This document shows positions 7,161-61,833 of a stretch of DNA of 64,000 nt, piece after piece. The position numbers and the translations under genes were made by a program. The DNA is from Candidatus Enterousia sp. Lineage in GTDB: Bacteria; Pseudomonadota; Alphaproteobacteria; Rs-D84. How positions within the stretch are numbered: position 1 is the stretch's first letter; every line of letters begins with the position of its first letter. The notes beneath the pieces were generated by a model that was not told the DNA's origin, ran no database searches, and saw only the letters and a list, made by a program, of their open reading frames with translations. Location of the stretch: assembly GCA_045546075.1 (NCBI GenBank), contig JAZQCF010000001.1:8299-72298 (forward strand). Direction: 5' to 3'.

Positions 7161-7292
7161 CCTCTTTTTTTAACCCATTTATACCAAACCCGCGCAAAAT
7201 GTCAATTTTTTGTAAAAAATCCGCTATAATTTGTTGAAAACGTAAAAATATAGTATAATCTATACCCTTGGGTCAAAAAAAGGGTTATGTAT

Positions 7293-31249: not shown

Positions 31250-31268
31250 AAAAAGAGGGAATGTAAAT

Positions 31269-31514
31269 ATGAGAACGATATATAAAATCTTTATCGCGTG
31301 CCTTTTAACCGCCATTGTTACCGCGTTTGTCACGGCCCACGTTGTTCGACAAAAATATGAATGGACAGACACAATGGAATATCTGTGCAAAGACGATGCC
31401 GCCCCAGATTTGAATGGATGCTGTCCGGGTGAAACATATACAGATATGGGTGAAGCCGGGTTTAATTGTTGTCCAACCGATGGTGGTGATTGTTTTCCAC
31501 CGATTGAAAAATAA
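31269..31514 (+). CDS. Small membrane-anchored protein carrying the C-x9-GCC-x14-CCP-x5-C motif
   Basis: GAGGGA SD 7 nt before ATG 31269, one N-terminal TM helix, and C-terminus LCKDDAAPDLNGCCPGETYTDMGEAGFNCCPTDGGDCFPP, which aligns with the C-terminus of the 50716-51336 product. Confidence 0.55.
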   Translation: MRTIYKIFIACLLTAIVTAFVTAHVVRQKYEWTDTMEYLCKDDAAPDLNGCCPGETYTDMGEAGFNCCPTDGGDCFPPIEK

Positions 31515-45818: not shown

Positions 45819-47138
45819 CTATTCCCCTAACTTTTTCACCGATTCCGCCGACATTAAAATCTTGTATTTCGCGTTCAGCAACGCCATATCTAATTGATAC
45901 AAACCCGCCGAAACATCCGCCAATTCAACAGCCGATGTTTGACCCGCGGCAAATCGATCACGTGAAAAACCATACGCCCGCGCCGCCAAATCCCGCGCAT
46001 TTTTCAATCCACCAAGGTTTTCGCGCAGATGATTGTATTGCTTGATTGCATTGGAATATTTTTCCGTTGTTAATTTTCTAGACTTGTCTAAATCTTGGCG
46101 TGCGGCCTCGGCATTCATGGCATCAACCGTGGCATTCGCGCGATTTAGACCGCCACTGAAAATAGGAACCTTTAATGCCAACCCCCAATATGCCGATTGT
46201 GATGCGTTATCATTAAACATATTCTTGAAACTTTTATCCATCGTAGAATAGTTATATGACCCAACCGCCGCCAACGTTGGATAACCGTTTGCACGTTTAG
46301 ATGATGCCTGGGCCTCGTACATCTTGACCTGTTGGTCCAACACCATCCATTCCGGAGTATTGGTCAATTTTTTATTTGCCATTTCCGGAAATTCATCCGG
46401 GAATTCATCAGTCAGGTTTAATTCTTCATCAACATCGATTCCCGCCAATATTTTTAACATACGATGTGCGGTATCCCGATTAAATTCTGCATCACTAAGG
46501 TTAATTTCTTTGGTTGCAATATCGGATTCAATTTTAACCAGGTTTGACCTGTTTGCGCGCCCGGCCACCGCTATATTCCGTTTCGCCTCTTTTGCATAAT
46601 CCAAATCCTGCTTAGATATTTTGACGATTTCATCGGTCATTTTTGCGGTCCAATACATATCGGCGGCGGCATATTTAACCTCGCGCATAACCATCTCTTT
46701 ACTGTATTCGCCCATTTTAATTGCGCTGCGCACGCTGTCCACCGCGTTACCAATTTTTCCAAACGTATAAATCGGCTGTGTAATCGTAACACCCGCCATA
46801 AAGATATTATCTGGAATTTCAATATTATTTATACCGGCCAACTGGGGCACCAATCCACCAATTTCCGGCGGCAGTTTTACATTATACGAATCCAGTGGTT
46901 TTTCCACATTTACCAAATTCATATATGTCGCCGACCCTTCAATACTGAACCACCGATTGGAATTCGCCACATCCAACGATGCCTGGGCCTTTTTCAGGTT
47001 TGCATCGGCCTTTTTCAAATCATTCGATTCGGCAACAATTTTTTGCACCGCATCGTTCAAAGACAAATCCATCGCATACCCGTCTATGCCGCAAAATCCG
47101 GCGTATAGCGCAAAACCAAATACAATACATTTACGCAT
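45819..47138 (-). CDS. TolC family outer membrane efflux protein
   Basis: Signal peptide, tandem OEP repeats, and an N-terminus LSLNDAVQKIVAESNDLKKADANLKKAQASLD typical of TolC. Confidence 0.85.
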   Translation of the reverse strand: MRKCIVFGFALYAGFCGIDGYAMDLSLNDAVQKIVAESNDLKKADANLKKAQASLDVANSNRWFSIEGSATYMNLVNVEKPLDSYNVKLPPEIGGLVPQLAGINNIEIPDNIFMAGVTITQPIYTFGKIGNAVDSVRSAIKMGEYSKEMVMREVKYAAADMYWTAKMTDEIVKISKQDLDYAKEAKRNIAVAGRANRSNLVKIESDIATKEINLSDAEFNRDTAHRMLKILAGIDVDEELNLTDEFPDEFPEMANKKLTNTPEWMVLDQQVKMYEAQASSKRANGYPTLAAVGSYNYSTMDKSFKNMFNDNASQSAYWGLALKVPIFSGGLNRANATVDAMNAEAARQDLDKSRKLTTEKYSNAIKQYNHLRENLGGLKNARDLAARAYGFSRDRFAAGQTSAVELADVSAGLYQLDMALLNAKYKILMSAESVKKLGE

Positions 47139-47720: not shown

Positions 47721-47794
47721 TGGGGTGTCGTCTAATGGTAGGACAAGAGATTTTGGTTCTCTTTATCATGGTTCGAATCCGTGCGCCCCAACCA
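47721..47794 (+). tRNA. tRNA-Gln (anticodon UUG), CCA encoded
   Basis: Hand-folded. Acceptor TGGGGTG/CGCCCCA, D arm GTCT-AATGGTA-GGAC, anticodon stem AGAGA/TCTCT with loop TTTTGGT (UUG), T arm CATGG-TTCGAAT-CCGTG, discriminator A, CCA. Confidence 0.9.
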
Positions 47795-48069
47795 AAAATT
47801 CAACCGGCTCCACCGGTTTAATTTTTGGTCTGCGCACGGATGGGTGCGACGCGTCAGCGCAGCACCAATACGAGAATACACAATTAGAAAAATCTTAAAA
47901 AATCGACTTTGGAGAATTTTTTTGATTTTTGTTATTGTGTATCAAGGCACCCGTGCGCATTCCAGAGAGCAAAAAAAACAAATTTTCGCCAAGTTCGAAA
48001 GTTTGGTTTTGAAAAATGGCAAAAAATTGGTGTTTTCAAACTCTTTGTGATATAATTATGCCAAAGGTT
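47783..48069 (+). repeat. Module A: tRNA-Gln 3' end + hairpin + GCGCATTCCAGAGAG box + promoter-like TGATATAAT
   Basis: Collinear blocks are shared with module B (48788-48966): CCCCAACCAAA(A/C)ATTCAACCGG..., GCGCATTCCAGAGAG, AAATTTTC.CCAAG.TTC.AA, TTTCAAACT.TTT.T.ATA.AATTA. Confidence 0.75.
47792..47828 (+). terminator. Long hairpin overlapping the tRNA CCA end (terminator / att-like core)
   Basis: CCAAAAATT-C-AACCGG-CTCCA-CCGGTT-T-AATTTTTGG. A copy with compensatory changes lies at 48796-48836. Confidence 0.6.
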
Positions 48070-48074
48070 ATTTT

Positions 48075-48725
48075 ATGAATAAGATTTTTTATATATTTAG
48101 ACATGGTCAGACAGATTACAATACTGAAAAACGGGTACAAAGTATTTTAGATGTACCATTAAATCAAGATGGTGTTAATCAAGCAAAACAGTTAGCAAAA
48201 AATTTATCTGATGTGCAATTTGATTGTATTTATAGTTCTCCTTTATCACGGGCTTTGGATACAGCAAAAATTGTTGTTGAGAATCGAGATATAAAAATTA
48301 TAACTGATCCAGGATTACAAGAAAGGAACCTTGGTGCACTTTGCGGGAAAATAGTAAAAACAACGGATGCCCCTGTTAACACACAGTTTGATATAAATGC
48401 AGATATGATAAACATACCTTTGGCTCTTTTGTCTGACGATGATTATGCGCCACCAAAAAATGGTGAAAGCTATAATATGTTTGCTAAACGAGTTCTTGAT
48501 ACAATGTTGAATATTGCAAAGAATACACATGCAAAAACAGTCGGTGTTTCAACGCATGGTGGTGTTATGAGTTTTTTAATACGACATTTTACTGATTTTG
48601 CACATGGCGGAACCCCAAATACAGGTTATATCAAAATGCAGTGGGATGGGAAAACTTTTACTTTACTAGAAACTCCCGATTGGTTGTTAAAAATTAATGC
48701 TTTAACACAATCTGGACGGCAATAA
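48075..48725 (+). CDS. Histidine phosphatase (phosphoglycerate mutase-like) family protein
   Basis: IFYIFRHGQTDYN (RHG catalytic motif) and the second His in VSTHGGV. AT-rich gene. Confidence 0.8.
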   Translation: MNKIFYIFRHGQTDYNTEKRVQSILDVPLNQDGVNQAKQLAKNLSDVQFDCIYSSPLSRALDTAKIVVENRDIKIITDPGLQERNLGALCGKIVKTTDAPVNTQFDINADMINIPLALLSDDDYAPPKNGESYNMFAKRVLDTMLNIAKNTHAKTVGVSTHGGVMSFLIRHFTDFAHGGTPNTGYIKMQWDGKTFTLLETPDWLLKINALTQSGRQ

Positions 48726-48787
48726 TATATCTTTAACATCATCTATCTCTCTTACTATTTCCAATAATTCAGTTCGCGTTTTGCCAG

Positions 48788-48966
48788 CACCCCCCAACCA
48801 AACATTCAACCGGCCCCAGCGGTTTAATGTTTAGGTTTGTGTGACGCACGAATACACCAGAGCGACGCGCATTCCAGAGAGTAAATAAATTTTCCCAAGA
48901 TTCAAATGGTTGGGTTTTTGAAATTCAAAATTTATTGAACTTTCAAACTGTTTATAATAAAATTAA
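48788..48966 (+). repeat. Module B: degenerate copy of the tRNA-Gln 3' end/hairpin/promoter-like module
   Basis: GCACCCCCCAACCAAACATTCAACCGGCCCCAGCGGTTTAATGTTTAGG matches tRNA positions ~66-76 plus the downstream hairpin of module A. About 100 nt of module A are missing from the middle. Confidence 0.75.
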
Positions 48967-48987
48967 ACGACAACCAAAGGAAAAAAG

Positions 48988-49719
48988 ATGCAAATAACAA
49001 TGCGACCAATGACGGTTGATGAAGCATGGAATTATATTCTTGAACGGCATACAGCATTTCATGACAGCTTAAAAAATTTTGGGTATAAATATAACCTTTG
49101 GGTGCCGAAACCGAATAACGAATATATCAAGGCAATGTTCGAAAAAGATAAGTTAACAGACCAAGAAATAAACTTTTATAAAAATTTCTTTACCAATAAA
49201 ATCTATAATATTGATGATTTGCGACGGTTTGATGGTATATTCGACGAATTTGTAAAACCTATGTTGGAAAGGAGTATAAATAAATTTTTGGTTCCTTTGT
49301 TACCAAGTTGGAACGCGAATTTGCCCGAAAAGTTAGAAATTTTATGTACCTATGGTGTGGGCGCGGGATATGACCGTAAAAGCGATGAAGTTGCCACAAT
49401 AACTTTTCGTATGTCAAGATATCCAGACAACAAGGAAAAGATACTTGATACTATGTTGCATGAATTTATTCATTTATTAATAGAAAAACCAATAATACAA
49501 CAATACGATGTTCCGCATAATTTTAAAGAACGAATTGTTGATAACATAGGGCAAATATTTTATAACAGATACCCCCAAGAAAAATTTATAAATCCTTTCG
49601 TCGATAAATATATTACCGCCACGGCAATCAAAACAGATTTACCTGGCGCGGTAAAAAAGATGATGACAGATTATAAAATGTTGCGGCAGAAACAAATTCA
49701 GCAAGGACAAAGTTTTTAA
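48988..49719 (+). CDS. Hypothetical protein with an HExxH motif (possible Zn-metallopeptidase fold)
   Basis: MLHEFIHLLIE is the only motif I recognise. No signal peptide. AT-rich gene. Confidence 0.45.
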   Translation: MQITMRPMTVDEAWNYILERHTAFHDSLKNFGYKYNLWVPKPNNEYIKAMFEKDKLTDQEINFYKNFFTNKIYNIDDLRRFDGIFDEFVKPMLERSINKFLVPLLPSWNANLPEKLEILCTYGVGAGYDRKSDEVATITFRMSRYPDNKEKILDTMLHEFIHLLIEKPIIQQYDVPHNFKERIVDNIGQIFYNRYPQEKFINPFVDKYITATAIKTDLPGAVKKMMTDYKMLRQKQIQQGQSF

Positions 49720-49859
49720 TATACTTTTGCGGTTTTGCACTATCTAATGATTCGAGCCGCGTTTCGCCATCATTTCGGCACATGCCAAAGGTTTTTTATC
49801 AAATAACAATTAAACAGCCCCGGTGTTATACTGGGGCCGTATTCTTATGGGGGGGCGAC

Positions 49860-50552
49860 ATGTACGAATATTTAATAATTTATGGATTGATGATAGTCAA
49901 ACTTGTTTTGGCAATTGTATCTGTTGTTATCTTTATGCATTTTTTCAGTTCATCCGGCAATCTAAAACAATCCACCCCGCTTTCTGTTATAATAAACTTC
50001 CTGCTTAGTGCGATTTTATCGGGTTTTATATTAAATGACCGCATAAATATTCTAGAATTTACAATTGTTGTTTTGATATACGGCGGAATAATCAGCGCCC
50101 TAAACCGATTGGCGTTTTACACTAATTTTGGTCGTCGCATGTTCGTCGGCATACCCAAAGTATTGGTCCAAAACGGTCAATTAAACACGAAACGAATGCA
50201 AAAACTTAAAATATCTGCACGCGATTTAGTCGTCGCCATGCGAAAACACAAAATACGTTCTCTTGACGACATTGAAATGGCCCAGATTGAACCCACCGGC
50301 GAATTGACCATTGTAAAGAAAGGCGCAGAAAAATATTCAATTGTATTGATTGATAACGGAATTATCGACCGTATCGCATTAAAGAAAATAAACCGTACCG
50401 AAAAATGGCTGCGCCAAAAATTGCGTGAAAAAAAGATAACAACAACCAATAATATTTTTGTCGCCCAATGGCACCATGGAAAACTGTATATAGTAAAAAA
50501 GAACAAGGGATTAAATAACGCCACGCCCCCGACACAAAAATCTAATACATAA
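49860..50552 (+). CDS. DUF421 (YetF-like) membrane protein
   Basis: Three N-terminal TM helices and a C-terminal soluble domain (ISARDLVVAMRKHKIRSLDDIEMAQIEPTGELTIVKK) resembling the YetF family. Start set at MYEYLII (49860). Confidence 0.65.
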   Translation: MYEYLIIYGLMIVKLVLAIVSVVIFMHFFSSSGNLKQSTPLSVIINFLLSAILSGFILNDRINILEFTIVVLIYGGIISALNRLAFYTNFGRRMFVGIPKVLVQNGQLNTKRMQKLKISARDLVVAMRKHKIRSLDDIEMAQIEPTGELTIVKKGAEKYSIVLIDNGIIDRIALKKINRTEKWLRQKLREKKITTTNNIFVAQWHHGKLYIVKKNKGLNNATPPTQKSNT

Positions 50553-50715
50553 AATCCAACAGGTCATAAAACTAATAACATTCTTTCATCAAATACGTTT
50601 TACGACCAATATATATTTGTTTATTTTTCAACCATACCGTCCGCACAATCCATTGCAACCGCGGGCGATAAAATACCAACACAAAACAAACCAAAGCAAA
50701 ATTTTTTCATACTTT

Positions 50716-51336
50716 TTATTTTTTCCTTGGCTCTACGCATTCGCCGTCGCCTTCGCGGGGACAGCACGCAAATTTCATCTGGGAAACTTCTTTGAACTTT
50801 TCACCCGTACAGCATCCAAACCGATTGGGTTTTGCCCCATCATCACACAGGCCTTTGGCGCGATTTTCTTCTATTTGCGCCAATTCAGCCGCCAATTCTT
50901 CGGGCGTTTTTTCTGGTACCGGTTCGGGTTCTGGTGCCGGTTCTGGTGTGGCATCAACCTCTTCTTCTACAACTTCTTCTGCAACCTGGGGTTCAACAAA
51001 ATTTTTGGCCGGATTTACATTTTCATAGTTATGAACCGGTCTGCGCCGCGCGCGTGCCGCACACACCGTGCGTTGCCGCGACAACATATATTCTAAATCG
51101 GGGGCCAATTCCGGATACGCCTTGATATCTTCGCGCAGTTCTTCAACGCGTTGATTTATGTCGGCGCAACTCATCCGCTCTACCACCGCGCGTGGGGCGG
51201 GAACTTCTTCCACCGCGGCGGTATCAACAACTGTGGTTTCTGCGTCATCCGCAACAACCGATTCCAGGTTTGATTCATCCGCCAATGCCGGCGCACACAC
51301 AAATACGCCAAGTATCGCAATTATTTTTATGTTCAT
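50716..51336 (-). CDS. Exported acidic/Pro-Glu-rich protein ending in the C-x9-GCC-x14-CCP-x6-C motif
   Basis: Signal peptide MNIKIIAILGVFVCAPALA/DE, the linker PEPAPEPEPVPEKTPEE, and the C-terminus LCDDGAKPNRFGCCTGEKFKEVSQMKFACCPREGDGECVEP. Strong SD (AAGGGGGG). Confidence 0.55.
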   Translation of the reverse strand: MNIKIIAILGVFVCAPALADESNLESVVADDAETTVVDTAAVEEVPAPRAVVERMSCADINQRVEELREDIKAYPELAPDLEYMLSRQRTVCAARARRRPVHNYENVNPAKNFVEPQVAEEVVEEEVDATPEPAPEPEPVPEKTPEELAAELAQIEENRAKGLCDDGAKPNRFGCCTGEKFKEVSQMKFACCPREGDGECVEPRKK

Positions 51337-51356
51337 TCCGCCCCCCTTTGAATTTT

Positions 51357-52109
51357 TTATTCTTCAATTATGCGTTGCAATTCCAATATAAAATCGATTC
51401 CCGGATTAACCATTTTTTCAACTTTATTCAGGTATTTTTTTGCTTCGTTCTGCATTTGCAGTTTTTTATAGGTATTTATCGTAGAACGAATTTCACTGGT
51501 ATCAATATTTGCATCATTAACGCGCACACCATCGGCAATTTTTAATTCATCCAAAGCCTTTTGCGCATATTTCTGGCGATTTTCCGTACAACCATCTTCC
51601 GCCATTTTCGAATATATCTCGGCATTTTCTAAATGACAATTTGGTGAATCGCCACAATTCTGTATATTAGATAACAAATTTCTTTCAATGACGGCACATG
51701 GACTATCATCAACAATATTCTCATCAAAAATTTTACGCAAAACTTCAAAGGTTGCAAATTCTGCATCTCTCATTTCTTTATACTTGTCGGTATTTTCGTC
51801 ACAGCCCCACTTTGCCAACCTGTCATAAATATCGGCATTATGTCTATGGGCCGTTGTTGCCCATCTCAGGTCTGCATCATTTATGTTATAATTCAGTTGT
51901 GCCAACAATGCATTTTCGCGCATTTGGCAACCACTTAATTCTGTCTGTACGGCGGAATCCGGCGTATAGACGGTTTTTGCCTGCCAAATAAACGCGCCCG
52001 CCATCATACCACATACAAATATTCCAATCAATGCGACCCAGGCCAAAATTCTTTGACGGCGCGAATATGTATAAACTTTTTCATTTACGATTTTTTTATT
52101 CTCTCTCAT
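51357..52109 (-). CDS. Membrane-anchored protein with an internal NA[DE]IY..[LM]A..GC.EN..KY repeat
   Basis: One TM helix (ILAWVALIGIFVCGMMAGAFIW). The repeats are HRHNADIYDRLAKWGCDENTDKY (aa 88-110) and HLENAEIYSKMAEDGCTENRQKY (aa 159-181). Confidence 0.55.
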   Translation of the reverse strand: MRENKKIVNEKVYTYSRRQRILAWVALIGIFVCGMMAGAFIWQAKTVYTPDSAVQTELSGCQMRENALLAQLNYNINDADLRWATTAHRHNADIYDRLAKWGCDENTDKYKEMRDAEFATFEVLRKIFDENIVDDSPCAVIERNLLSNIQNCGDSPNCHLENAEIYSKMAEDGCTENRQKYAQKALDELKIADGVRVNDANIDTSEIRSTINTYKKLQMQNEAKKYLNKVEKMVNPGIDFILELQRIIEE

Positions 52110-52128
52110 TTTTTCTCCCCTTTATATT

Positions 52129-52839
52129 TTATTTAACGATGCCTTTTTTAATTGTAATCTGGCGGTCGGCACGGTTGGCCAACGACATATCGTGCGTCAC
52201 AAACAACATTGCCATTTTATTTTTCCTTACCAAATCCAACAGCAATTCAAAAACGCTGATTGCGTGATTTGGATCCAAACTGCCCGTTGGTTCGTCCGCC
52301 AACAATATATCCGGCGTGTTTGCCAACGCGCGCGCAACCGCGGTGCGTTGTTGTTCACCACCCGACATTTGCCCCGGCAGATGTGATGCCCGATGCGCCA
52401 CATTGGCGGATTTTAACAGTTTCATCGCGCGTGCGTACGCCGCATCCGCGTCCATACCGTTTGCCAACATTGGCAACATAACGTTTTCCACCGCCGTAAA
52501 ATCAGACAACAAATTATGCCGCTGATATACAAATCCCATTTTGCGCCGGCGAATCATTGTCCGCATTTCTTCGTTCATTGTGTGAACCGGCGTGCCAGAA
52601 ACCAAAATACTGCCCCCCGACGGTTTATCCAATAAACCCACACATTGTAACAGGGTTGATTTCCCCGAACCCGACGGACCAACCAGGGCGATAATTTCAC
52701 CACGGTGTAAATCAAACCCGCCCCCGGTTAGAATATGCAACGGTTGACCACCTTCTATAAAGGTCTTTTTAATATCGCGCACCGACAGGACCACATCGCC
52801 CTGCTTTGCCCGTGATAAAGAATTCAATATAGATGCCAT
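52129..52839 (-). CDS. lolD: Lipoprotein-releasing system ATP-binding protein LolD
   Basis: GPSGSGKSTLLQ (Walker A), LSGGEQQRTAVARAL (signature) and LLADEPTGSLD (Walker B). Confidence 0.88.
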   Translation of the reverse strand: MASILNSLSRAKQGDVVLSVRDIKKTFIEGGQPLHILTGGGFDLHRGEIIALVGPSGSGKSTLLQCVGLLDKPSGGSILVSGTPVHTMNEEMRTMIRRRKMGFVYQRHNLLSDFTAVENVMLPMLANGMDADAAYARAMKLLKSANVAHRASHLPGQMSGGEQQRTAVARALANTPDILLADEPTGSLDPNHAISVFELLLDLVRKNKMAMLFVTHDMSLANRADRQITIKKGIVK

Positions 52840-53519
52840 TATTTTATGTCTCGCCCTTTATTAGTTTTTATGATAGCATTTTGTTTATTTTTTTCCAATG
52901 CAGAAATTATCTTGTTCGCTGTTTCCGGTGCCAACACATACCCAGTCATAATTCCATATGCTTTAATTTTATCATACAATTCTTGTTCATTCTTTAAAAC
53001 AATATCTATATGAATACCTTGCTGAAAACGCCCGCGGCAATAATAATCTATCTCTTTTGGCGCAAACCCAAATATTGACCCATATATAATATCATTACGT
53101 TTGCTTGGTATGTTTGGTAAATCCGGATTCAATTTGATTATCTTATCATATTCCAAAGATAATTTTTCATCATAACTTTTACTTTTTGATTTGATGTAAT
53201 CGATAACCTGCAATCTTGTTTGTTCATCTGGTATACTATTTTTAAAATCCGTTTGAAAACCAAACCTATCATCACCATTCAGCATTTCAAAATCTACATA
53301 AAAACCATACAGTGCAATTTTTTTCATATAATCTGCCTGTGTCACATTGTCCGGCATTTTATATTTATGAAATAATTTTATATTGTTAATACCGATTTTC
53401 TGTAATTGTTTTTCCAAATCTTTTGCAGACGAATTCCATTCTTCGCCATATGCATACGAATACCTTAATGCAATTTCGGCCAATTTGATTTCAATTGATT
53501 TATCTAAAGACTTATTCAT
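52839..53519 (-). CDS. Hypothetical cytoplasmic protein (226 aa) wedged between lolE and lolD
   Basis: Its ATG overlaps the lolE stop (ATGAATAA) and its stop overlaps the lolD start (TAATG). No signal peptide, TM helix or recognisable motif. Visibly AT-richer than its neighbours. Confidence 0.55.
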   Translation of the reverse strand: MNKSLDKSIEIKLAEIALRYSYAYGEEWNSSAKDLEKQLQKIGINNIKLFHKYKMPDNVTQADYMKKIALYGFYVDFEMLNGDDRFGFQTDFKNSIPDEQTRLQVIDYIKSKSKSYDEKLSLEYDKIIKLNPDLPNIPSKRNDIIYGSIFGFAPKEIDYYCRGRFQQGIHIDIVLKNEQELYDKIKAYGIMTGYVLAPETANKIISALEKNKQNAIIKTNKGRDIK

Positions 53520-54789
53520 TTCGCAACACCTCTACCGGGTCAGTGTTTGCGGCACGCCACGCCGGATATATGGTTGCCAAGAACGCCAGTGCGATTGCCA
53601 GCACCGCAATTCCAACAACCGTTGTAAATTCCAAACGCGATGGCAATTCAGACAAATAATACAATTCCGCCGGAAACAAATCGCGACCTGTTGCCCATTG
53701 AAAGAATTTGCGAATCGGTTCAATATAAATTGCCACAACCACGCCCAATATCGTCCCCAGCGCGGCACCAATCACACCAATACTGGTCCCCGACAGGATA
53801 AATATCTTCATCATTGAACGGCGTGAAACACCGAATGTCCGCAACACCGCAATATCGCGCGATTTGTCTTTGACCAACATAACCAAAGACGAAACGATAT
53901 TAAACGCCGCCACAATCACAATCAGCATTAAAATCAAAAACATAACATTTGTTTCAACCTGCAACGCACCAACAAATCCGCGGTTCAAATCACGCCAATC
54001 ACGCACCACATACCCATCGGGCAATGTTGCAATTAATGCCTCGCGCACGGGGGTTGTGTCTTCGGGATTTTTCAAGAATAAATCTATATGCGTTACCGCA
54101 TCCCCCAGGTTCAAATATTTCTGGGCGGTTTCCAACGGCATAAATATATATCCCGAATCATATTCATACATTCCCATAAAGAAAGATGTCATCACCGGAT
54201 AAGACATAATTCGCGGCATCGTTCCAAACGCAGTCGGTGTCGCCCCATTTGCCGAAACCAACGACACAGTTTCCCCCATATGCACATTCAGGTTTCGCGT
54301 CAAAGATGCACCCGCCACCAATTCACCATCGCGAATATCGCTAAGTTTTTTACCATACATCCGTGTTCCGGTTGCGGTCTTGGCCGCCAAATCGGTCATA
54401 CGAATTCCACGCACCATCGCACCGGTGTTGTTCCCATCGTGAGTAACCATAACCTGGCCTTCGGCGATTGGCACAATGGACGACACGGCGTTTTTCACAG
54501 TTTTGCCGCTTTTCATTTGTTCTATTAAAAAATCATAGTCCGCGATTGCGCCATCTTGGTGATATACAACAACGTGCCCGTTCATACCAACAATGCGCGA
54601 CAACAGCGTATCGTGAAAACCGCCCATAACCGACATAACCACAATCAGTGTCGCAACACCCAACATAATCCCAATCAACGACACCCACGACACCACGGAC
54701 CCAAACCCGCGTCCCCGCGCCCCCAGGTATCTAAATGCTATTTTTCTTTCCAATTTGCTGAACATCATACTACCTATTCTATCATCCAA
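53512..54789 (-). CDS. lolE: Lipoprotein-releasing system permease (LolC/LolE family, FtsX/MacB-type)
   Basis: KIAFRYLGARGRGFGSVVSWVSLIGIMLGVATLIVVMSVMGGFHDTLLSRIVGMNGHV, a large periplasmic domain and three C-terminal TM helices. The start could also be M8 or M9 (54768/54765). Confidence 0.85.
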   Translation of the reverse strand: MDDRIGSMMFSKLERKIAFRYLGARGRGFGSVVSWVSLIGIMLGVATLIVVMSVMGGFHDTLLSRIVGMNGHVVVYHQDGAIADYDFLIEQMKSGKTVKNAVSSIVPIAEGQVMVTHDGNNTGAMVRGIRMTDLAAKTATGTRMYGKKLSDIRDGELVAGASLTRNLNVHMGETVSLVSANGATPTAFGTMPRIMSYPVMTSFFMGMYEYDSGYIFMPLETAQKYLNLGDAVTHIDLFLKNPEDTTPVREALIATLPDGYVVRDWRDLNRGFVGALQVETNVMFLILMLIVIVAAFNIVSSLVMLVKDKSRDIAVLRTFGVSRRSMMKIFILSGTSIGVIGAALGTILGVVVAIYIEPIRKFFQWATGRDLFPAELYYLSELPSRLEFTTVVGIAVLAIALAFLATIYPAWRAANTDPVEVLRNE

Positions 54790-54791
54790 AA

Positions 54792-56111
54792 TTATTCGCG
54801 CAAGAAATTCCGCAATGCATCCCCGACCAACTGCGGTTCATCCGGAATATCATTTGGGTTTACAATCGAAACAATCCGTGGCGACATAAATACAACCAAT
54901 TCTGCAAACGGACTTATCAATGTTTCCGGTGTTGTAACAAACGAATGTGTTGGAATACCAATTATGACATAGTTATCACCGACACTGGACGGAATTGTAA
55001 ATGATGTCAATTCGCCCTTGCTGGTCCGCAGGACGATTTTCGCGTCTATCTTGTTTCGACCGGCGTAATCGCCGTATTTCGCACTGGCCCCCACAATCAG
55101 GTCTGTTTCTATACGGTCTTCTTTGCTGCATTGACCGATATCGAATCGGGATTGCCAACCGTCCGGCACCACAAAATGCCCCTGGGATATAAGAACAACA
55201 TTGGATTGCGCAGACAAGAATTCTTGTAATGTTTTGGTGTTAACTTCGGGCCCAACAACCAACGCACGCCCAACAACCCCCGGCACAGACATTTTAATAT
55301 TTTTTTCACCAAAGGCCGGCAACATATTCATCCATATAATTGGATTGTCCGTCCGCGGATACACGCGATACACATCCATATCCCACGCCAAGACATATTT
55401 TTTGGATGCTATATCGGCAATTATGCGTGTAACTTCGCGCTCGGTTTGATAATTGCCTTCGAAAACAACGGTTTTATCCGCCCAATCCACAATCAGGTTT
55501 CTTACATCCGCCCCATGCATTGCATCCAACAATGCCATTATTATATCCTGCTCTGCCGGCATTTTTATCAACCATTTTGCCCGATTGGACAGTTTTATTT
55601 CACCACCCGCGGCATCATATGAATAATACATCCGCCCCAGGCGTGCAATCAAATCCACCGTATCGGCCAGGTTTCCCGACGCAACCGACCCAGACACCTT
55701 TTCATATCCGGGTTCTTCTTCAATAACGGCAATATCAACACCTTCCAATAATTTATTTAACGCATTTGCAACGGTCTGTTTCCTGAAATCATAGTCCGTA
55801 ACGTTTAATTCCGGCAAATCATCACCTTTGTCCAGGCGCACCATTTCAATTTTTTCATCCGGCACAACCGACACAACCGATTGACTGTCCCAATTTACCG
55901 TGCATCGCCGCGGCAATTCGATAGAAAATCGCCGTGCGGTATCGGTGGTCAACGCCGCCTTTTTCGGGAAAATCGGCACAGAATTATCATCTATGACCAA
56001 ATTATCAATAACCTGAACCGTGTCATAGTATACCGTTTCATCCGCGCCATTGTTTCGCACACACGCCCCTAAACACACAGCCATCAAAACAAAATTTATT
56101 ATTTTTTTCAT
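54792..56111 (-). CDS. Outer-membrane lipoprotein with a secretin-like C-terminal region (tentative)
   Basis: Lipobox LGAC. An N-domain-like segment (QTVANALNKLLEGVDIAVI). The C-terminal pattern SNVVLISQGHFVVPDGWQSRFDIG...TIPSSVGDNYVIIGIP...AELVVFMSPRIVS resembles the secretin core (..v.dG.tvviGGl..eLlifitPriv). Confidence 0.4.
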   Translation of the reverse strand: MKKIINFVLMAVCLGACVRNNGADETVYYDTVQVIDNLVIDDNSVPIFPKKAALTTDTARRFSIELPRRCTVNWDSQSVVSVVPDEKIEMVRLDKGDDLPELNVTDYDFRKQTVANALNKLLEGVDIAVIEEEPGYEKVSGSVASGNLADTVDLIARLGRMYYSYDAAGGEIKLSNRAKWLIKMPAEQDIIMALLDAMHGADVRNLIVDWADKTVVFEGNYQTEREVTRIIADIASKKYVLAWDMDVYRVYPRTDNPIIWMNMLPAFGEKNIKMSVPGVVGRALVVGPEVNTKTLQEFLSAQSNVVLISQGHFVVPDGWQSRFDIGQCSKEDRIETDLIVGASAKYGDYAGRNKIDAKIVLRTSKGELTSFTIPSSVGDNYVIIGIPTHSFVTTPETLISPFAELVVFMSPRIVSIVNPNDIPDEPQLVGDALRNFLRE

Positions 56112-56126
56112 TTGTTTTACCCCGGG

Positions 56127-56450
56127 TTAAATATTCATTACCTTTTCGAATTCTTCCAATGTCATTTCATATATCGGCTTTTGCGAAGGCGTTGTCAAAT
56201 CACGCACATGTTCGAATTGCGCGCGAAACCGTTCCAAGACCGACACCACATCCGGCGATACATTTTTATTTGATTTTACCAAACGTTCACCATATTCTAC
56301 AACAAATTCTAACACATCCGCCGCAAAAAAACGACCGACATAATTTTCCATTGGAATTCCACCCTTGTTGACACATATTGCCGACATAGTCTTGGCGGTT
56401 TGATTATAAAAATTTGCCAACTTAATAAAATTTTGAACTGTTATCGCCAT
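56127..56450 (-). CDS. Hypothetical cytoplasmic protein (107 aa), first gene of the cluster
   Basis: GGGGGA SD 5 nt before ATG 56450. There is a 15-nt gap to the next gene. I recognise no motif. Confidence 0.45.
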   Translation of the reverse strand: MAITVQNFIKLANFYNQTAKTMSAICVNKGGIPMENYVGRFFAADVLEFVVEYGERLVKSNKNVSPDVVSVLERFRAQFEHVRDLTTPSQKPIYEMTLEEFEKVMNI

Positions 56451-56525
56451 CTTGTTCCCCCGATACATTTTTATACATTATAAAAACTATTGCCACCAAA
56501 ACGCAATTAAATTATAATAGGAAAT

Positions 56526-56915
56526 ATGAGAATGTTAAAAATATTTTTATTTGTTGGTTTATTTGGGATGGCGGCCTGCACATCCCCCAACGGCGGCAGC
56601 ATTGATGACGCAACCATTTTGAATTGGGAAAACGAATCTGTCACGACCGAACAGTTTGTTCGTGATCACCGGGCGTGCCTTGGGATAACACAACCATCAT
56701 ATATGCCACGTTCGCGCCTTGCAAAACTGTTGTCCCCAACACAAAGTACCCGTATGCCGGATTGGGATGGATTGTGGGTAACATTTCAATCAAACGAATA
56801 CAAGGATGTTGGCCAACGCGCATTATTGTCTGTGCCACGCAACACGACATCAAAATCTGTGGGATCTTACCGAAAATGTATGTTCCGCCGCGGATATTTA
56901 TTGCGCGCAATGTAA
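56526..56915 (+). CDS. Small lipoprotein
   Basis: Lipobox GMAAC after a hydrophobic signal. Divergent from the lol cluster and upstream of ftsQ. Confidence 0.5.
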   Translation: MRMLKIFLFVGLFGMAACTSPNGGSIDDATILNWENESVTTEQFVRDHRACLGITQPSYMPRSRLAKLLSPTQSTRMPDWDGLWVTFQSNEYKDVGQRALLSVPRNTTSKSVGSYRKCMFRRGYLLRAM

Positions 56916-56969
56916 ATTTTTTGCGCGGTCACTTTTACATTTAATATAAAGTATGATATAATACGCCAT

Positions 56970-57650
56970 ATGAAACGTAACCTTTGGTTTTGGCTTTATT
57001 TTATTGCCGCCATATTATTGGCGATATACTTTGCGACGCGAATCATTATGACCTTTATGGGATATGGCCCAATATCTACGGTTCGTAATATATCTATATC
57101 GGCGGACACAAAAAACAAAGACCTGACCCAAATGGTGGCGGCGGCGGGTGTTGCACCGGGTACGCACGCATATTCGGTAAACCTGGAATTGATAAATGAA
57201 CGGTTGCTGAATACACCGGGGATTCGCGAATCGGCGGTGCGACGATTACCAAATGGGAATTTATCTGTGCGGGTGCACCTGTATCGTGCGGTTGCCGGTT
57301 GGACCGATGGAACATATTATTATCCACTGTCCGCGGATGGCACCGTTGTCAACAGCCCCAGTGAAGAAAAAAAGCCGGGTGTTGTTATGTTTCGTGGCCC
57401 CGTTCCAAACGATATTGCCGATATAACAAAATCCGCGACAAACCTTATTGGGAATTTGGATTATATGGAATGGATTGACAACCGACGTTGGAATATCATA
57501 ACCACAGATGGTATAACGATTATGCTGCCCGAAGAAGACCCAAATGCGGCAATCGCATCACTGATTGTATTAAACGACAAACATAATATTTTATCCAAGA
57601 ACATAAAAACGATTGATATGCGTGATAGCGCAAGGATTTTGGTTAAATAA
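56970..57650 (+). CDS. ftsQ: Cell division protein FtsQ
   Basis: N-terminal TM anchor, POTRA-like segment (INERLLNTPGIRESAVRRLPNGNLSVRV), and position immediately upstream of ftsA. Confidence 0.75.
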   Translation: MKRNLWFWLYFIAAILLAIYFATRIIMTFMGYGPISTVRNISISADTKNKDLTQMVAAAGVAPGTHAYSVNLELINERLLNTPGIRESAVRRLPNGNLSVRVHLYRAVAGWTDGTYYYPLSADGTVVNSPSEEKKPGVVMFRGPVPNDIADITKSATNLIGNLDYMEWIDNRRWNIITTDGITIMLPEEDPNAAIASLIVLNDKHNILSKNIKTIDMRDSARILVK

Positions 57651-59441
57651 ATGAATATGCTGGATTCATCTTTTCTGTGTTTAGACATCGGTTCGTGCGG
57701 TGTCCGCGGAATGGCGTATCGCATTCGTAATGCCGAAATTGATAAAAGCGTATATTATTCTGTGGACGATTTTGATACAGTATTCGCATTAAAATCTGTT
57801 ATTGATGAATTGGAACGACAAATTGGAACGCATTTTAATGCGGCATATATAACAGGAAACTTTGGTCCATCATATTTCAAGATGACCAGTAAAAGCACCA
57901 CTTGGCCCGGCGACCACAAAATAACCGCCGCCGATATAAAATCACAAATTGCCGAAATTGATGCCCCCGATGGATTTTATCCAATGCATATAATTCCATT
58001 GCGATATGACACACCGAAAATTCGTAATATGCTGACCCCAATCGGGCACAGCGACAGACAATTAGTGTCCGCATTTTCTGCGTTGTTTTTTGATGGCGAA
58101 TATATGAAAAAAATCCAAAACCTGATGCGACGCGCACATATTCAATCAAACGCATTCTATACGCCACATTTCCTGGGGAATTCGATTCTACGCAAAAAGA
58201 ATCAAACGATTATGTTCATTGATTTTGGCGCAGAAAACACAACAACATCCATATGGACCGACCGTGGACCTGTTTGTTATAACGGCCGCGCGATTGGTGG
58301 AAACGATTTAACCACCGAAATATCAACACGACTGAATATACCATTTGCCGATGCCGAACGTATTAAACGCGCGGTGGCGGACCTTAAATCAAATGAAATG
58401 GCACGTTTCAGTCCTGCCGATTCTGCATATGCGTTTTCCTGTGCGGATGTAAATGAAATCGTTGTTCCGTTTTATAATAATTTAATTGATGGCATTAAAA
58501 GTGATATTGCCGAATATATTGATAAATATTCACCAACACAAATTATTATTGGTGGCGGTGGCGCAAACATAAATGGAATTGACGATTTAATGACCGGGGC
58601 GTTTAACAACATACCTTTCGTCAAAAAAGACCCTGATTGGGCGGTGCGTACATTGGCGGAATATATATGGGAATGTGAATTACCACGGCGGCGCGCATAT
58701 ATTGCACGCGCACAACATATCCAAAATCGTATGAATAAAATTGTTGGTATCTTCAAACGCAAACGCCGTGTACACAAACGAAACATACCAATTTTCCCAA
58801 GCACCCTTTGTTTCGATATGGCACGTCCCGAAACATATACAATGTTTCAAACCGGTGGCATATCAACAATACACGTTGATATTATGGATGGATTATATGT
58901 AAACAAAATTGCGGGTGGTATTGATGAATTACGCCAAATCCGGGCATCTTGGGATGGACATTTGCACGTCCACCTTATGACCGATGCACCCGCCGAATGG
59001 GCGCGCAGCGCGATTAATTCTGGGGCGGACACAATTATTGTTTCGACAAATACCGCAGGATTACGCAGTGCGGTTCAAATTGTTCGTGAATCAGGCCGAC
59101 GCATTGGTATTGCACTAAATCCCGAATCTTCGGTATCGTTATTAAAAACTGTCTTGCGTGATTTAGACGAAGTGATGATTATGGGGGTCACCCCGGGTGC
59201 CGCCGGCCAAGAATTTAATCGGGATGTGTTACATAAAATATCTGTATTAAACGCAACCCGAAAAAAATATGGATTAAAATTTACAATATCTGTTGATGGT
59301 GGAATAACACCCGAAACGGCACGTATGTGTTGGGCCGCAGGCGCAGATTCATTGGTGTCGGGGTCATACCTGGCATCGGCACCGGATTTTCCGTTGGCGG
59401 TATTATCCTTGTTGCCGCCCCAAAAAATTAACGCAGTATAA
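57651..59441 (+). CDS. FtsA-like actin-fold protein fused in frame to ribulose-phosphate 3-epimerase
   Basis: aa 1-~365 carry CLDIGSCGVRG, FIDFGAENTTTS and IIIGGGGANINGIDDL. A basic linker NKIVGIFKRKRRVHKRN follows. aa ~379-585 carry IFPSTLCFD, IHVDIMDG, HVHLMT, MGVTPGAAGQEF and SVDGGI, which make a complete Rpe barrel. Confidence 0.75.
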   Translation: MNMLDSSFLCLDIGSCGVRGMAYRIRNAEIDKSVYYSVDDFDTVFALKSVIDELERQIGTHFNAAYITGNFGPSYFKMTSKSTTWPGDHKITAADIKSQIAEIDAPDGFYPMHIIPLRYDTPKIRNMLTPIGHSDRQLVSAFSALFFDGEYMKKIQNLMRRAHIQSNAFYTPHFLGNSILRKKNQTIMFIDFGAENTTTSIWTDRGPVCYNGRAIGGNDLTTEISTRLNIPFADAERIKRAVADLKSNEMARFSPADSAYAFSCADVNEIVVPFYNNLIDGIKSDIAEYIDKYSPTQIIIGGGGANINGIDDLMTGAFNNIPFVKKDPDWAVRTLAEYIWECELPRRRAYIARAQHIQNRMNKIVGIFKRKRRVHKRNIPIFPSTLCFDMARPETYTMFQTGGISTIHVDIMDGLYVNKIAGGIDELRQIRASWDGHLHVHLMTDAPAEWARSAINSGADTIIVSTNTAGLRSAVQIVRESGRRIGIALNPESSVSLLKTVLRDLDEVMIMGVTPGAAGQEFNRDVLHKISVLNATRKKYGLKFTISVDGGITPETARMCWAAGADSLVSGSYLASAPDFPLAVLSLLPPQKINAV

Positions 59442-59838
59442 TTTTACGCCCCGCCCCATATTCACAAATATCAATATGAACAGTGTTTTCCGGCAACATA
59501 TCCGCCGCAATATCCGGCCATTCAATCAATGTTATATCGTTTTGAATTGAATGTTCCAAACCGATTTCTACCAATTCCGCCGCATCCGCAATTCTGTATA
59601 AATCAAAATGCGATATTTTTGTATCGCCCGCAACATACGTTTGAACCAATGTAAATGTTGGACTTGGCACCACGGTATTTTCCCCGCACAGTGTTTGAAT
59701 AATTGTTCGCGCGATTTCACTTTTTCCAACACCCAAATCCCCGTGCAGCGCGACACAAACCGGCGCGGTCAATGTTCGCGCAAATTCGCGTGCGAATTCA
59801 CGTGTTTCGTTTATGTCTTTTGTAATGTATGTTTTCAT
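59428..59838 (-). CDS. tsaE: tRNA t6A37 biosynthesis protein TsaE
   Basis: ALHGDLGVGKSEIARTI P-loop and SPTFTLVQTY. Convergent 14-nt overlap with the previous gene. Confidence 0.85.
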   Translation of the reverse strand: MKTYITKDINETREFAREFARTLTAPVCVALHGDLGVGKSEIARTIIQTLCGENTVVPSPTFTLVQTYVAGDTKISHFDLYRIADAAELVEIGLEHSIQNDITLIEWPDIAADMLPENTVHIDICEYGAGRKIILR

Positions 59839-59844
59839 ATTTTT

Positions 59845-61833
59845 TTACTCCAACACCAATAATTCATCTTCCAGTTTTCGAATCGTATCACGAATTTCCG
59901 CCGCCATCTCAAAGTCCAGGTTTTCCGCCGCACGCCGCATTTTTTGATTCAGTGTTTTTATTTCGCGCCGCAAACCATCTGCATCTTTCAAACCTTCTTT
60001 GGTGTACAAGAATCGTTGTTTTTTATCAACCTTTTCTTGTTTTTCTGTGACATCATCAAATATTTTCTTGGATACAGTTTTTGGTGTAATTCCATGTTCG
60101 GCATTATATGCCATTTGCTTTTCACGCCGGCGCGCCGTTTCACTTAATGCGGCATTCATAGAATCCGTTATCACATCGGCATAGAGTATTACACGCCCGT
60201 TTGCGTTACGCGCGGCACGACCAATGGTTTGAATAAGTGAACGTGTTGACCGCAAAAAACCTTCTTTATCGGCATCCATAATCGCGACCAATTCACATTC
60301 CGGCACATCCAATCCTTCGCGCAATAAATTAATTCCAACCAACACATCAAATTTTCCCATACGCAAATCACGCAATAATTCTATACGTTCCAATGTTTCA
60401 ATATCACTGTGCAGGTATCGCGCACGAACACCGTTTTCCACCAAATAGTCCGTTAATTGTTCCGCCATTTTTTTGGTCAATGTCGTAACCAGTGCACGTC
60501 CATCAATCGCCTTTAATTCCGCCAACAAATCATCAACCTGATTTTTAATTGGTCGAACGACACATTCTGGGTCCAACAGACCCGTTGGGCGAATCACCTG
60601 TTCGGCAACGATTCCGCCCGATTGTTCCAATTCCCAATCTGCGGGTGTGGCCGACACAAAAATTGTTTGTGGCCGCATTGCGTCCCATTCATCAAACGTA
60701 AGTGGCCGATTATCGACGCACGACGGCAATCGAAAACCATATTGCGCCAATGTTTCTTTGCGCGCACGGTCACCGCGCGACATCGCACCAATTTGGGATA
60801 CTGTAACGTGGCTTTCATCTATAAATAAAATTGCATCTTTCGGCAGGTATTCAAACAACGTTGGTGGTGGCTCGCCCGGTTTTCGTCCCGACAGGTATCG
60901 CGAATAATTTTCAATACCGCGACATGTTCCGGTTGATTCCATCATTTCAATATCCATATTTACACGTTCGCGCAGGCGTTGTTCTTCGACATATTTCATA
61001 TTTTCGTGAAAATATGCCAAACGCTCGTTCAGGTCACTTCGAATTTGACCAATCGCCTGGACCACGGACGGCATCGATGTCGCATAGTGCGTATTTGGAT
61101 ACACCGCGACACGGTCTAATTTAGATAACTTTGCCCCGGTCAATGTATCAAATTCCCAAATATCTTCAATTTCGTCCCCCCAGAAAGAAATCTTCCATGC
61201 CCTGTCCTGGCTGTGAGATGGAAAAATATCCAACGTATCCCCATGCACACGAAAATCACCACGCGTTGGTGCAACATCATTACGTTTATATTGAATACCA
61301 ACCAATTCGCGCATAATATCGGCCGGTCCCATCATATCCCCAACACGCAAAACCAATTTCATTTCTGCATATTGTTCGGGTGTCCCAAGGCCATATATGG
61401 CGGATACCGAAGAAACCACGATAACATCACGTTCTTCCAACATTGCGCGTGTTGCGCTGTGTCGCATACGGTCCAACTGTTCATTTATTGATGCGTCTTT
61501 ATCAATATATGTATCGGTTGTTGGAACATATGCTTCGGGTTGGTAATAATCATAATATGAAACAAAATATTCCACGTGATTATGTGGGAAAAAAGCCTTC
61601 ATTTCGGTATATAATTGTGCCGCCAAAATCTTGTTCGGTGCCATAATCAAGGCCGGCCGCCCCAATTCCGCAATAACATTTGCCATTGTAAAAGTCTTTC
61701 CGGAACCCGTGACCCCCAATAAAACCTGGGAACGGCGACCATCACGAATCCCCCCCACCAAATCATTAATAGCGGCCGGTTGGTCGCCCATTGGTTTGTA
61801 ATCACTTTCAAGATTAAAAATTTTTTTATTCAC
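59845..61833 (-). CDS. uvrB: Excinuclease ABC subunit B
   Basis: [18 protein letters not shown], helicase motifs and the C-terminal UVR domain (EMAAEIRD). GTG start. Confidence 0.96.

Follow-up and report, generated by a model that had tools for sequence, protein, structure and literature searches.

One of the closest described counterparts of the locus considered here is the Lol lipoprotein transporter, found as LolCDE in Escherichia coli and as LolF homodimers in Acinetobacter, Helicobacter, and Caulobacter. Alphaproteobacteria possess a single lolF together with lolD and lack LolB (PMC7240156; PMC9963962). The locus is a string of seven genes (g1, g2, lolF, g4, lolD, g6, and g7) in a 64-kb stretch of DNA from Candidatus Enterousia sp., hereafter the window; statements about the whole genome rest on this window and on the corresponding loci of relatives. 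Like described Lol systems, the string encodes a MacB_PCD plus FtsX permease scoring above the TIGR02212 cut-off and an adjacent LolD-like ATPase, and it has one permease gene, as in the LolF-type systems of Alphaproteobacteria. It differs from them in carrying a secretin-like lipoprotein upstream, Cys-rich exported proteins downstream, and, in some strains, an extra open reading frame (ORF) wedged translationally between permease and ATPase, while its LolD falls under the NCBIfam cut-off. The Lol part of the operon is known biology. The string as a whole is best read, with moderate confidence, as a layered operon made up of four evolutionary layers rather than as one machine.

The lipoprotein, g2, resembles the secretins of type IVb pili, namely BfpB (PDB 9u5s), TcpC, and PilN of R64. 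Shared features are the N-terminal lipobox, the N0/STN-like and ring-building N domains, the C-terminal secretin domain, and the terminal ELVxFxxPRI motif, and BfpB is the best fold match of g2 (PMC12531336). In contrast to these proteins, g2 has no Pfam Secretin match, a secretin domain about 80 residues shorter, and an invariant Cys70/Cys328 pair. It is also unaccompanied by genes for a pilus, a type II secretion system (T2SS), or a type III secretion system (T3SS) in the window, and its partners are a soluble G1 protein, a double helix-turn-helix (HTH) regulator, and a PT protein instead of BfpG/TcpQ.

Two further systems invite comparison. Aat (AatPABCD) of enteroaggregative and enterotoxigenic E. 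coli is a composite of a Lol-like ABC transporter and type I secretion, whose genes for a Lol-related permease and ATPase accompany those for an outer-membrane channel and an exported substrate (PMC7943197). However, Aat uses a TolC-like duct (AatA), an adaptor (AatB), and the acyltransferase AatD, all absent from this string, and the permease of the string qualifies as a genuine LolC/E equivalog rather than a diverged paralogue. MacAB-TolC has a permease of the same superfamily (MacB_PCD plus FtsX) and an ATPase of the same clade, but the string lacks a MacA-type adaptor, and the sole OEP/TolC-like gene in the vicinity (45819-47138) belongs to a separate MarR-OEP-RND cluster. Among the five non-Lol products of the string, none of which has a Pfam or NCBIfam match, there is no adaptor, TolC-like duct, or AatD.

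In the proposed layering, the first layer would be g1-g2, a small soluble protein paired with a compact lipidated secretin of the BfpB/TcpC/PilN class. The second would be lolF-lolD, a housekeeping lipoprotein extractor of the homodimeric LolF2D2 type usual in Alphaproteobacteria. The third would comprise g6, g7, and a deleted third gene, predicted as clade-specific, rapidly evolving, disulfide-rich envelope proteins, and the fourth g4, a putatively non-essential orphan wedged at the lolF-lolD junction and in the course of being lost by deletion. It is the distribution of linkages that suggests an old g1-g2 module, a one-sided lolF-lolD junction, and the later addition of g6 and g7. Mechanistically, Sec would export pro-g2, Lgt and LspA would lipidate Cys17, and LolF2D2 would extract the lipidated protein and pass it through LolA to the outer membrane, where g2 may oligomerise into a secretin-type channel. 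The position of g2 directly upstream of lolF would couple expression of a large lipoprotein client with that of its transporter, and LolDF itself would not power transport through g2. A loose link of this kind, with the lipidated secretin as a Lol client, is plausible. The elements of the string are as follows.

56538..56511, minus strand: promoter-like site TTAACA-16-TATAAT upstream of g1, matching 11 of 12 positions of the sigma-70 consensus in a pattern match; candidate operon promoter
56127-56450, minus strand: g1, 107 amino acids (aa), or 113 aa if an upstream ATG at 56468 is used
54792-56111, minus strand: g2, 439-aa lipoprotein, compact divergent homologue of BfpB-class secretins
53512-54789, minus strand: lolF-type (LolC/E family) permease, 425 aa from a TTG or 417 aa from the ATG at 54765, which is the start called in sister strain L090
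52839-53519, minus strand: g4, 226-aa cytoplasmic orphan gene between lolF and lolD
52129-52839, minus strand: lolD, 236 aa, ABC ATPase of the Lol transporter
51357-52109, minus strand: g6, 250 aa, bitopic membrane protein
50716-51336, minus strand: g7, 206 aa, exported acidic protein
50572..50710, minus strand: gene remnant that includes a 29-aa ORF (50621-50710), consisting of the first 29 and last ~17 codons of a 270-aa gene

An earlier note on this DNA had described seven co-directional minus-strand genes with gaps of -8 to +20 nt, and all seven lie where it placed them. From g1 to g7 the spacings are +15, +2, -8, -1, +19, and +20 nt, with a further +5 nt to the 29-aa ORF. A pattern scan found no convincing minus-strand terminator inside the string. 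These gaps, the promoter-like site, and the uninterrupted run agree with the single transcription unit proposed earlier, and the string is probably one co-transcribed operon. The order g1-g2-permease-lolD-g6-g7 is kept, as far as contigs reach, in 80 of 80 related species-level genomes, with identities of 62-96% for g1, 68-94% for g2, and 22-96% for g6/g7. What is not kept from the seven-gene order in the note is the embedded 226-aa g4, present in nine of the 80. These relatives, recovered through the permease at 80-95% identity, are uncultured rumen and gut Alphaproteobacteria, many of them named Candidatus Enterousia; the order Rs-D84 lineage has genomes of ~0.75-1.0 Mb and lacks flagella (PMC12306168). 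Conservation of order in 80 relatives means that these ORFs have not come to lie together by chance. Equal conservation is nevertheless seen beside the string, in the 80 loci, for ftsQ and a gene for a 129-aa lipoprotein, both unrelated to it, and the Enterousia clade alone therefore says little about function.

A divergent secretin and the g1-g2 module

The lipobox of g2 reads LGAC, and its Cys17 is invariant in 32 orthologues. Residues 18-80 form a conserved linker, modelled with low confidence, between the lipobox Cys and N0. A word index holds 1,205 homologues of g2, and the 120 listed are all 'hypothetical protein' without a Pfam match. An exhaustive phmmer search of 1.84 billion representatives with g2 gave 136 matches, the weak tail of which consists of proteins with Pfam Secretin, STN, and, once, TcpQ domains. 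When a profile of 34 g2-family members was aligned by hhalign with a profile of 26 Pfam-Secretin proteins from this tail, the two matched with a probability of 100% (E 1.7e-39) across residues 84-423 of g2 and positions 62-466 of the secretins. The alignment takes in the terminal ELVVFMSPRIV signature and contains three deletions, leaving the secretin domain of g2 ~80 residues shorter than that of its BfpB-like relatives. Searched against PDB, the secretin profile finds its best match in BfpB, itself a lipoprotein secretin (9u5s; E 5e-40). By direct search, Pfam Secretin (PF00263) matches neither g2 nor any of the 34 family members, and a PDB sequence search with the g2-family profile returned noise only; NCBIfam, PHROG, and PADLOC likewise have no match for g2, whereas one family member matches Pfam STN.

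The predicted structure points in the same direction. With an alignment of 57 sequences reaching 20% identity, AlphaFold (AF2) modelled g2 with a pLDDT of 86.5 and a pTM of 0.76; a shallow alignment (32 sequences, at least 72% identical) had given a pLDDT of 45. Residues 80-302 of the model form beta-alpha-beta-beta-alpha-beta-beta and alpha-beta-beta-alpha-beta units, corresponding to N0/STN-like and ring-building N domains. A Foldseek comparison of the model returned, at E<=1e-3, 31 PDB matches, all 31 of them secretins, with BfpB (9u5s) first at E 5.6e-10 and N-domain crystal structures of XcpQ, GspD, and EscC among the others. The accompanying TM-scores are low (0.14-0.24), as expected where a free monomer model is compared with chains from assembled rings. 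The note had seen a likeness to secretins at the C-terminus; the likeness is borne out, though it extends over the whole mature protein in both hhalign and Foldseek. By remote homology and predicted fold, g2 is a real but very divergent secretin. Its relatives, as judged from profile comparisons, are a compact, Pfam-invisible new family in the secretin superfamily, closest to the lipoprotein secretins of type IVb pili. The gene is under strong purifying selection, with a dN/dS of 0.03-0.10.

Two further cysteines of g2, Cys70 in the linker (ELPRRC; ~55902-55904) and Cys328 in the secretin domain (FDIGQC; ~55128-55130), are invariant in 34 family members down to 21% identity. Their invariance suggests a disulfide tying the linker to the barrel.

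The product of g1 is soluble, with neither a transmembrane (TM) segment nor a signal peptide. phmmer ties it to the gene that directly precedes the g2 homologue in three relatives (L081, L083, and L085), and it aligns with the C-terminal part, a conserved core, of the longer acidic 'G1' proteins that relatives encode. Pfam, NCBIfam, PHROG, and PADLOC hold no match for g1, and a PDB search with the g1-family profile gave only noise. In the window g1 and g2 share a reading frame, 15 nt apart (54792-56468). At L084 6001-7725, gene calling joins a g1-like and a g2-like part in a single 574-aa ORF (P0139), which would bury the lipobox and may be a read-through, an artefact of the calling, or a true fusion.

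Beyond the Enterousia clade, the unit kept nearly everywhere consists of a double-HTH regulator (XRE-type, HTH_3), one or two acidic soluble G1 proteins, and G2. A large metagenome clade adds a proline-rich bitopic 'PT' protein, giving the order HTH-G1-G1-G2-PT, in which a long acidic G1a precedes G1b. Downstream neighbours vary in other lineages and include the PT protein, plsY-dprA, and others. In four divergent lineages (L081, L083, L145, and L154) lolF-lolD directly follows the g2 homologue, overlapping it or within tens of nt. There the permease is 41-47% and g2 35-43% identical to that of the window (g2: L081 37%, L083 35%, L154 43%), the other neighbours differ, and in L081 and L083 g2 and lolF share a start/stop overlap. 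Lol genes do not follow the g2 homologue in L084, L085, L086, L155, and probably L156, nor in 62 of 63 gut and rumen metagenome loci (L091-L153), which were found by a scan with an eight-sequence alignment and are partly redundant strains. In the neighbourhoods of distant g2 homologues examined, no genes for T2SS, T3SS, type IV pilus/competence, or filamentous-phage machines were found. This distribution identifies g1-g2, at the level of gene neighbourhoods, as an old two-gene module, with the lolF-lolD junction confined to one side of the family. A small literature search found no description of a secretin-lolF operon.

Some neighbours of the module deserve mention in their own right. A TrbL/VirB6-family gene lies just upstream of it in L085. 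The window itself contains a ComEC gene (Competence plus DUF4131; 34828-36759, plus strand), and in L155 dprA is found two genes after the G2 homologue, past plsY. The co-occurrence of ComEC, the orphan secretin g2, and dprA near G2 in L155 raises the idea of a role in DNA uptake.

The Lol transporter and competing explanations

The assignment of the permease and ATPase to the LolE and LolD families, already made in the earlier note, is upheld by model searches. The permease scores 416.6 bits against TIGR02212 (lolCE, an NCBIfam equivalog with a cut-off of 362.45), far above its scores with MacB or YbbP models, and contains the Pfam domains MacB_PCD (PF12704) and FtsX (PF02687). For the ATPase, which matches Pfam ABC_tran, TIGR02211 (LolD) is the best of 200 ABC models. 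The permease is under very strong purifying selection, with a dN/dS of 0.01-0.09; that of lolD is 0.03-0.08. The presence of one permease gene rather than two indicates a LolF-type system, as reported for Alphaproteobacteria, and the 64-kb window contains no second FtsX permease or ABC ATPase paralogue. In the relative L154, lspA adjoins lolD. Most likely, lolF-lolD is the housekeeping lipoprotein-sorting system of the organism, and given the small genome and the single-lolF rule it is likely the only Lol pair.

Several points weigh against a layered operon built around a housekeeping transporter. The lolD ATPase scores 243.7 bits with TIGR02211, under the curated cut-off of 307.75, and beyond the 64 kb the genome may encode another Lol system or, far from g2, a pilus or T2SS with which g2 would work. 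The shortening of the secretin domain by ~80 residues means that g2 may not form a gated channel. Finally, four more divergent lineages keep g2 and lolF adjacent although the genes around them are different; such persistence exceeds the expectation from neutral synteny and could mean a tighter functional tie.

The alternative that survives best denies any functional link and treats the adjacency as an accident frozen in gene-dense, rearrangement-poor reduced genomes, in which g2 may even be a degenerate secretin with a structural role only. The equal conservation of the 129-aa lipoprotein gene and ftsQ beside the string, the several different downstream neighbours of g1-g2 elsewhere, and the shortened secretin domain all fit such an accident. 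Yet the low dN/dS of g2 and its retention in every genome of a gene-shedding clade speak for a function, and the start/stop overlaps with lolF in L081 and L083, together with recurrence in scrambled contexts, argue for selected co-expression. We regard the absence of any link as unlikely.

Quite unlikely, and put forward as speculation, is the idea that the G1-G2 module is an undescribed, pilus-independent 'mini-secretin' system of gut Alphaproteobacteria with reduced genomes, hard-wired in the Enterousia-side clade to a cooperating LolF-LolD. If this were true, a Lol-fed secretin route would put lipoproteins or Cys-rich proteins on the cell surface; alternatively, g2 would be an uptake channel, for example of DNA for ComEC, in cells lacking standard transporters. 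On this reading g4, nested in the junction and variable between strains, would modulate the LolF-LolD motor.

The earlier note had left two options, a dedicated envelope export module or plain housekeeping Lol with hitch-hiking genes, and the second, with neighbours of different ages, is now favoured. In a dedicated trans-envelope module, LolF/LolD would act as a MacB/Aat-like motor driving g6/g7-type cargo through g2. The string is tightly packed and probably co-transcribed, g2 does belong to the secretin superfamily, and within the Enterousia clade lolD is without exception followed by g6 and g7; Aat offers a precedent for recruitment of a Lol-like ABC transporter to lipoprotein secretion (PMC7943197). 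Against this, a permease that passes the LolC/E equivalog cut-off and is held by extreme purifying selection, in a genome of ~0.9 Mb, is most simply part of the sole, essential Lol system, and Pfam and NCBIfam searches find no membrane-fusion adaptor or TolC-like duct in the string. In most lineages g1-g2 occurs without lol genes, g6 and g7 are missing outside Enterousia where g2-lolF-lolD is kept, and g6, being membrane-anchored, is not obvious cargo. The module so conceived is not supported and is very unlikely, although it is kept from outright dismissal by the four divergent lineages in which g2 abuts or overlaps lolF among different neighbours. Least credible, and highly improbable, is a g2 that serves the Lol pathway itself as a lipoprotein acceptor or insertase (a LolB stand-in) or as a pore flipping selected lipoproteins to the surface: Alphaproteobacteria lack LolB (PMC9963962; PMC7240156), an outer-membrane-type lipoprotein lies immediately upstream of lolF in five lineages, and T2SS secretins are known to pass lipoproteins such as PulA and InvL to the surface (PMC12802150), but a bifunctional LolA already accounts for LolB-less Alphaproteobacteria (PMC9963962), most g2 homologues reside in the HTH-G1-G1-G2-PT module away from lol genes, and g2 has no LolA/LolB-like fold, all its significant fold matches being secretins.

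The gene nested at the lolF-lolD junction

The fourth layer of the proposed operon, g4, is nested between permease and ATPase genes. Its ATG sits within the final codons of lolF (...AAT GAA TAA read as A ATG AAT AA.) and its stop overlaps the ATG of lolD (TAATG). The GC content of g4 is 30%, compared with 47-49% in the flanks. An ORF at this site is present in 9 of 80 related loci, all nine homologous (21-80% identity), and missing from the other 71. The family comprises 61 proteins in 5.8 billion, with no match in Pfam, NCBIfam, PHROG, PADLOC, or, by profile search, PDB. All 13 of the 13 family contexts examined sit between lolF and lolD. The product of g4 lacks both a signal peptide and TM segments and carries conserved YK(M/L)P, NPEL, and G..(F/Y)G..P..I motifs. 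A small literature search found no description of a gene nested in a lolF-lolD junction.

Strain L090 is especially informative. Its g2 protein is identical to that of the window, and nucleotide identity is 99.0% over 60000..53512 and 96.7% over 52841..50609, yet g4 is missing: 670 nt of the window (53511..52842) are replaced by 13 nt, with immediate flanks 99% identical. The empty allele of L090 is shared with more distant species. The earlier note had held that lolE-lolD pairs without the flanking or embedded genes in relatives would speak against one module, and for the embedded gene this is what is seen, even in this near-identical strain.

The lolF-lolD spacers of relatives without g4 form a graded series of g4 remnants. 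The spacer of L030 retains the remnant 'MNNALEKNKQRVMMNNTKETGKEV' (also given as 'MNNALEKNKQRVMMNN...'), and those of L038, L020, L010, L017, and L009 hold shorter or frameshifted C-terminal pieces. Spacers with remnants, found in these six loci and in L018 and L039, measure 32-70 nt (~7250-7340 in each locus). In the commonest spacers, of 8-15 nt, all that is left of the interior is an A/G-rich stretch resembling a Shine-Dalgarno sequence, in many of them AAAGG. Most of these short spacers retain the ATGAATAA start at the end of lolF and some the TAATG junction; in many, the ATG in the lolF end opens a mini-ORF of 3-8 codons, whose stop overlaps the lolD ATG in some. Graded remnants of internal deletion make loss the dominant direction. 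Read from this series of spacers, g4 is ancestral to the clade, has been lost repeatedly by deletion, and is dispensable.

Where it is retained, g4 shows purifying selection in relaxed form (dN/dS 0.18-0.44). At synonymous sites g4 and its flanks have diverged to different degrees, in both directions: between the window and L013 the dS of g4 is 0.69, below the flanks (0.94-1.83), and between L013 and L016 it is 0.93, above the flanks (0.40-0.59). Together with the empty L090 allele common to distant species, this suggests that some allele exchange by recombination has likely occurred at g4. Between L013 and L016 the LolF proteins are 99% and the g4 proteins 53% identical; flanking synonymous divergence has already reached 0.4-0.6, so that much of this contrast reflects relaxed constraint.

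Other identities for g4 were considered. A mobile insertion or homing-type element was rejected as the main reading on account of the graded remnants and the 99% identical flanks without an imported tract, and a defence or phage gene finds no support in PADLOC or PHROG. As a guess, g4 might be a non-essential cytoplasmic accessory of LolF/LolD.

Cys-rich exported proteins, the surrounding window, and implications

The genes downstream of lolD belong to the third layer. The g6 protein has one TM segment (19-44) and a periplasmic domain with a repeated NAxIYxxxAxxGCxEN motif; it is found downstream of lolD in 78 loci (27-96% identity), at least 77 of which share Cys33, Cys138, and Cys174. The g7 protein combines a signal peptide, a pI of 4.5, a Pro/Glu-rich linker, and a C-terminal C-x10-CC-x14-CC-x7-C motif. 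The exported Cys-motif proteins of the earlier note are well founded, eight Cys of g7 being invariant in 77 of 77 orthologues. Neither g6 nor g7 has a match in Pfam, NCBIfam, PHROG, or PADLOC, PDB sequence searches with the single sequences gave only noise, and no counterparts were found in the more distant lineages that keep g2-lolF-lolD (L081, L083, and L154). As their distribution indicates, g6 and g7 are Enterousia-clade-specific, fast-evolving later additions. The six-Cys motif of g7 recurs in an ORF for a membrane-anchored product of 90 aa (31242-31514, plus strand), where 44 aa are 43% identical; this ORF comes directly after an LppC/LpoA-like periplasmic-binding lipoprotein gene (29627-31249). 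This recurrence points to a small domain family, not to a Lol-specific feature.

The 29-aa ORF that follows g7 had been taken for a possible signal-peptide mini-ORF. Instead of being a gene in its own right, it is what an internal deletion has left of the 5' end of a gene for a 270-aa exported Cys protein, intact in L090 (14755-15567), of which it represents the first 29 codons. The last ~17 codons survive out of frame at ~50572-50625. The N-terminus reads MKKFCF...DCADGMVEK in the window and MKKILF...DCADGMDEK in L090, and the C-termini are IYIGRKTYLMKECY and IYIGRKIYSLQECN, respectively. Next to the remnant, a variable island (47886-50608, GC 34%) that adjoins tRNA-Gln (47721-47794) holds three plus-strand genes, encoding a histidine phosphatase, an unknown 243-aa protein, and a YetF/DUF421 protein. 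The same slot in L090 is occupied instead by three genes co-directional with the operon: the one for the Cys protein of 270 aa, one for a protein of 327 aa, and a GH108 muramidase-like gene.

The remainder of the window is housekeeping in character, with genes for LptF/G, a Xer-type recombinase, SerS, BipA, glycosyltransferases, RecA, MltA, MnmE, ComEC, TruA, Fmt, FtsQ, an FtsA-Rpe fusion, TsaE, and UvrB, and the MarR-OEP-RND cluster. No T2SS, T3SS, or type IV pilus genes were found within +/-10 kb or among window ORFs of at least 200 aa. The 129-aa predicted lipoprotein gene (56526-56915, plus strand) is divergent from g1, has a promoter-like site at 56490-56518 and no family match, and is 69-98% conserved among related loci. 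Directly after ftsQ lies a 596-aa ORF (57651-59441, plus strand) in which an FtsA/PilM-like actin-fold domain (~180-320) is followed by a complete ribulose-phosphate 3-epimerase (383-574). Gene calling in L090 gives this fusion as well.

The layered operon carries a warning for annotation, since tight operons in reduced genomes should not be read as single machines. For lolF and lolD, presumably essential, it means that two such genes can accommodate between them a third that is translationally coupled yet dispensable, and in the graded deletion scars of g4 nature provides a series on which gene loss and translational coupling can be studied. A Pfam-invisible lipoprotein secretin family is now defined, with at least 1,200 sequences from gut and rumen Alphaproteobacteria. 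Its members include a mini-secretin held under strong constraint in ~0.9 Mb genomes, with no pilus, T2SS, or T3SS genes in the neighbourhoods examined. The role of a stand-alone secretin in cells this minimal, be it export, uptake, or attachment to partner cells, can now be tested.

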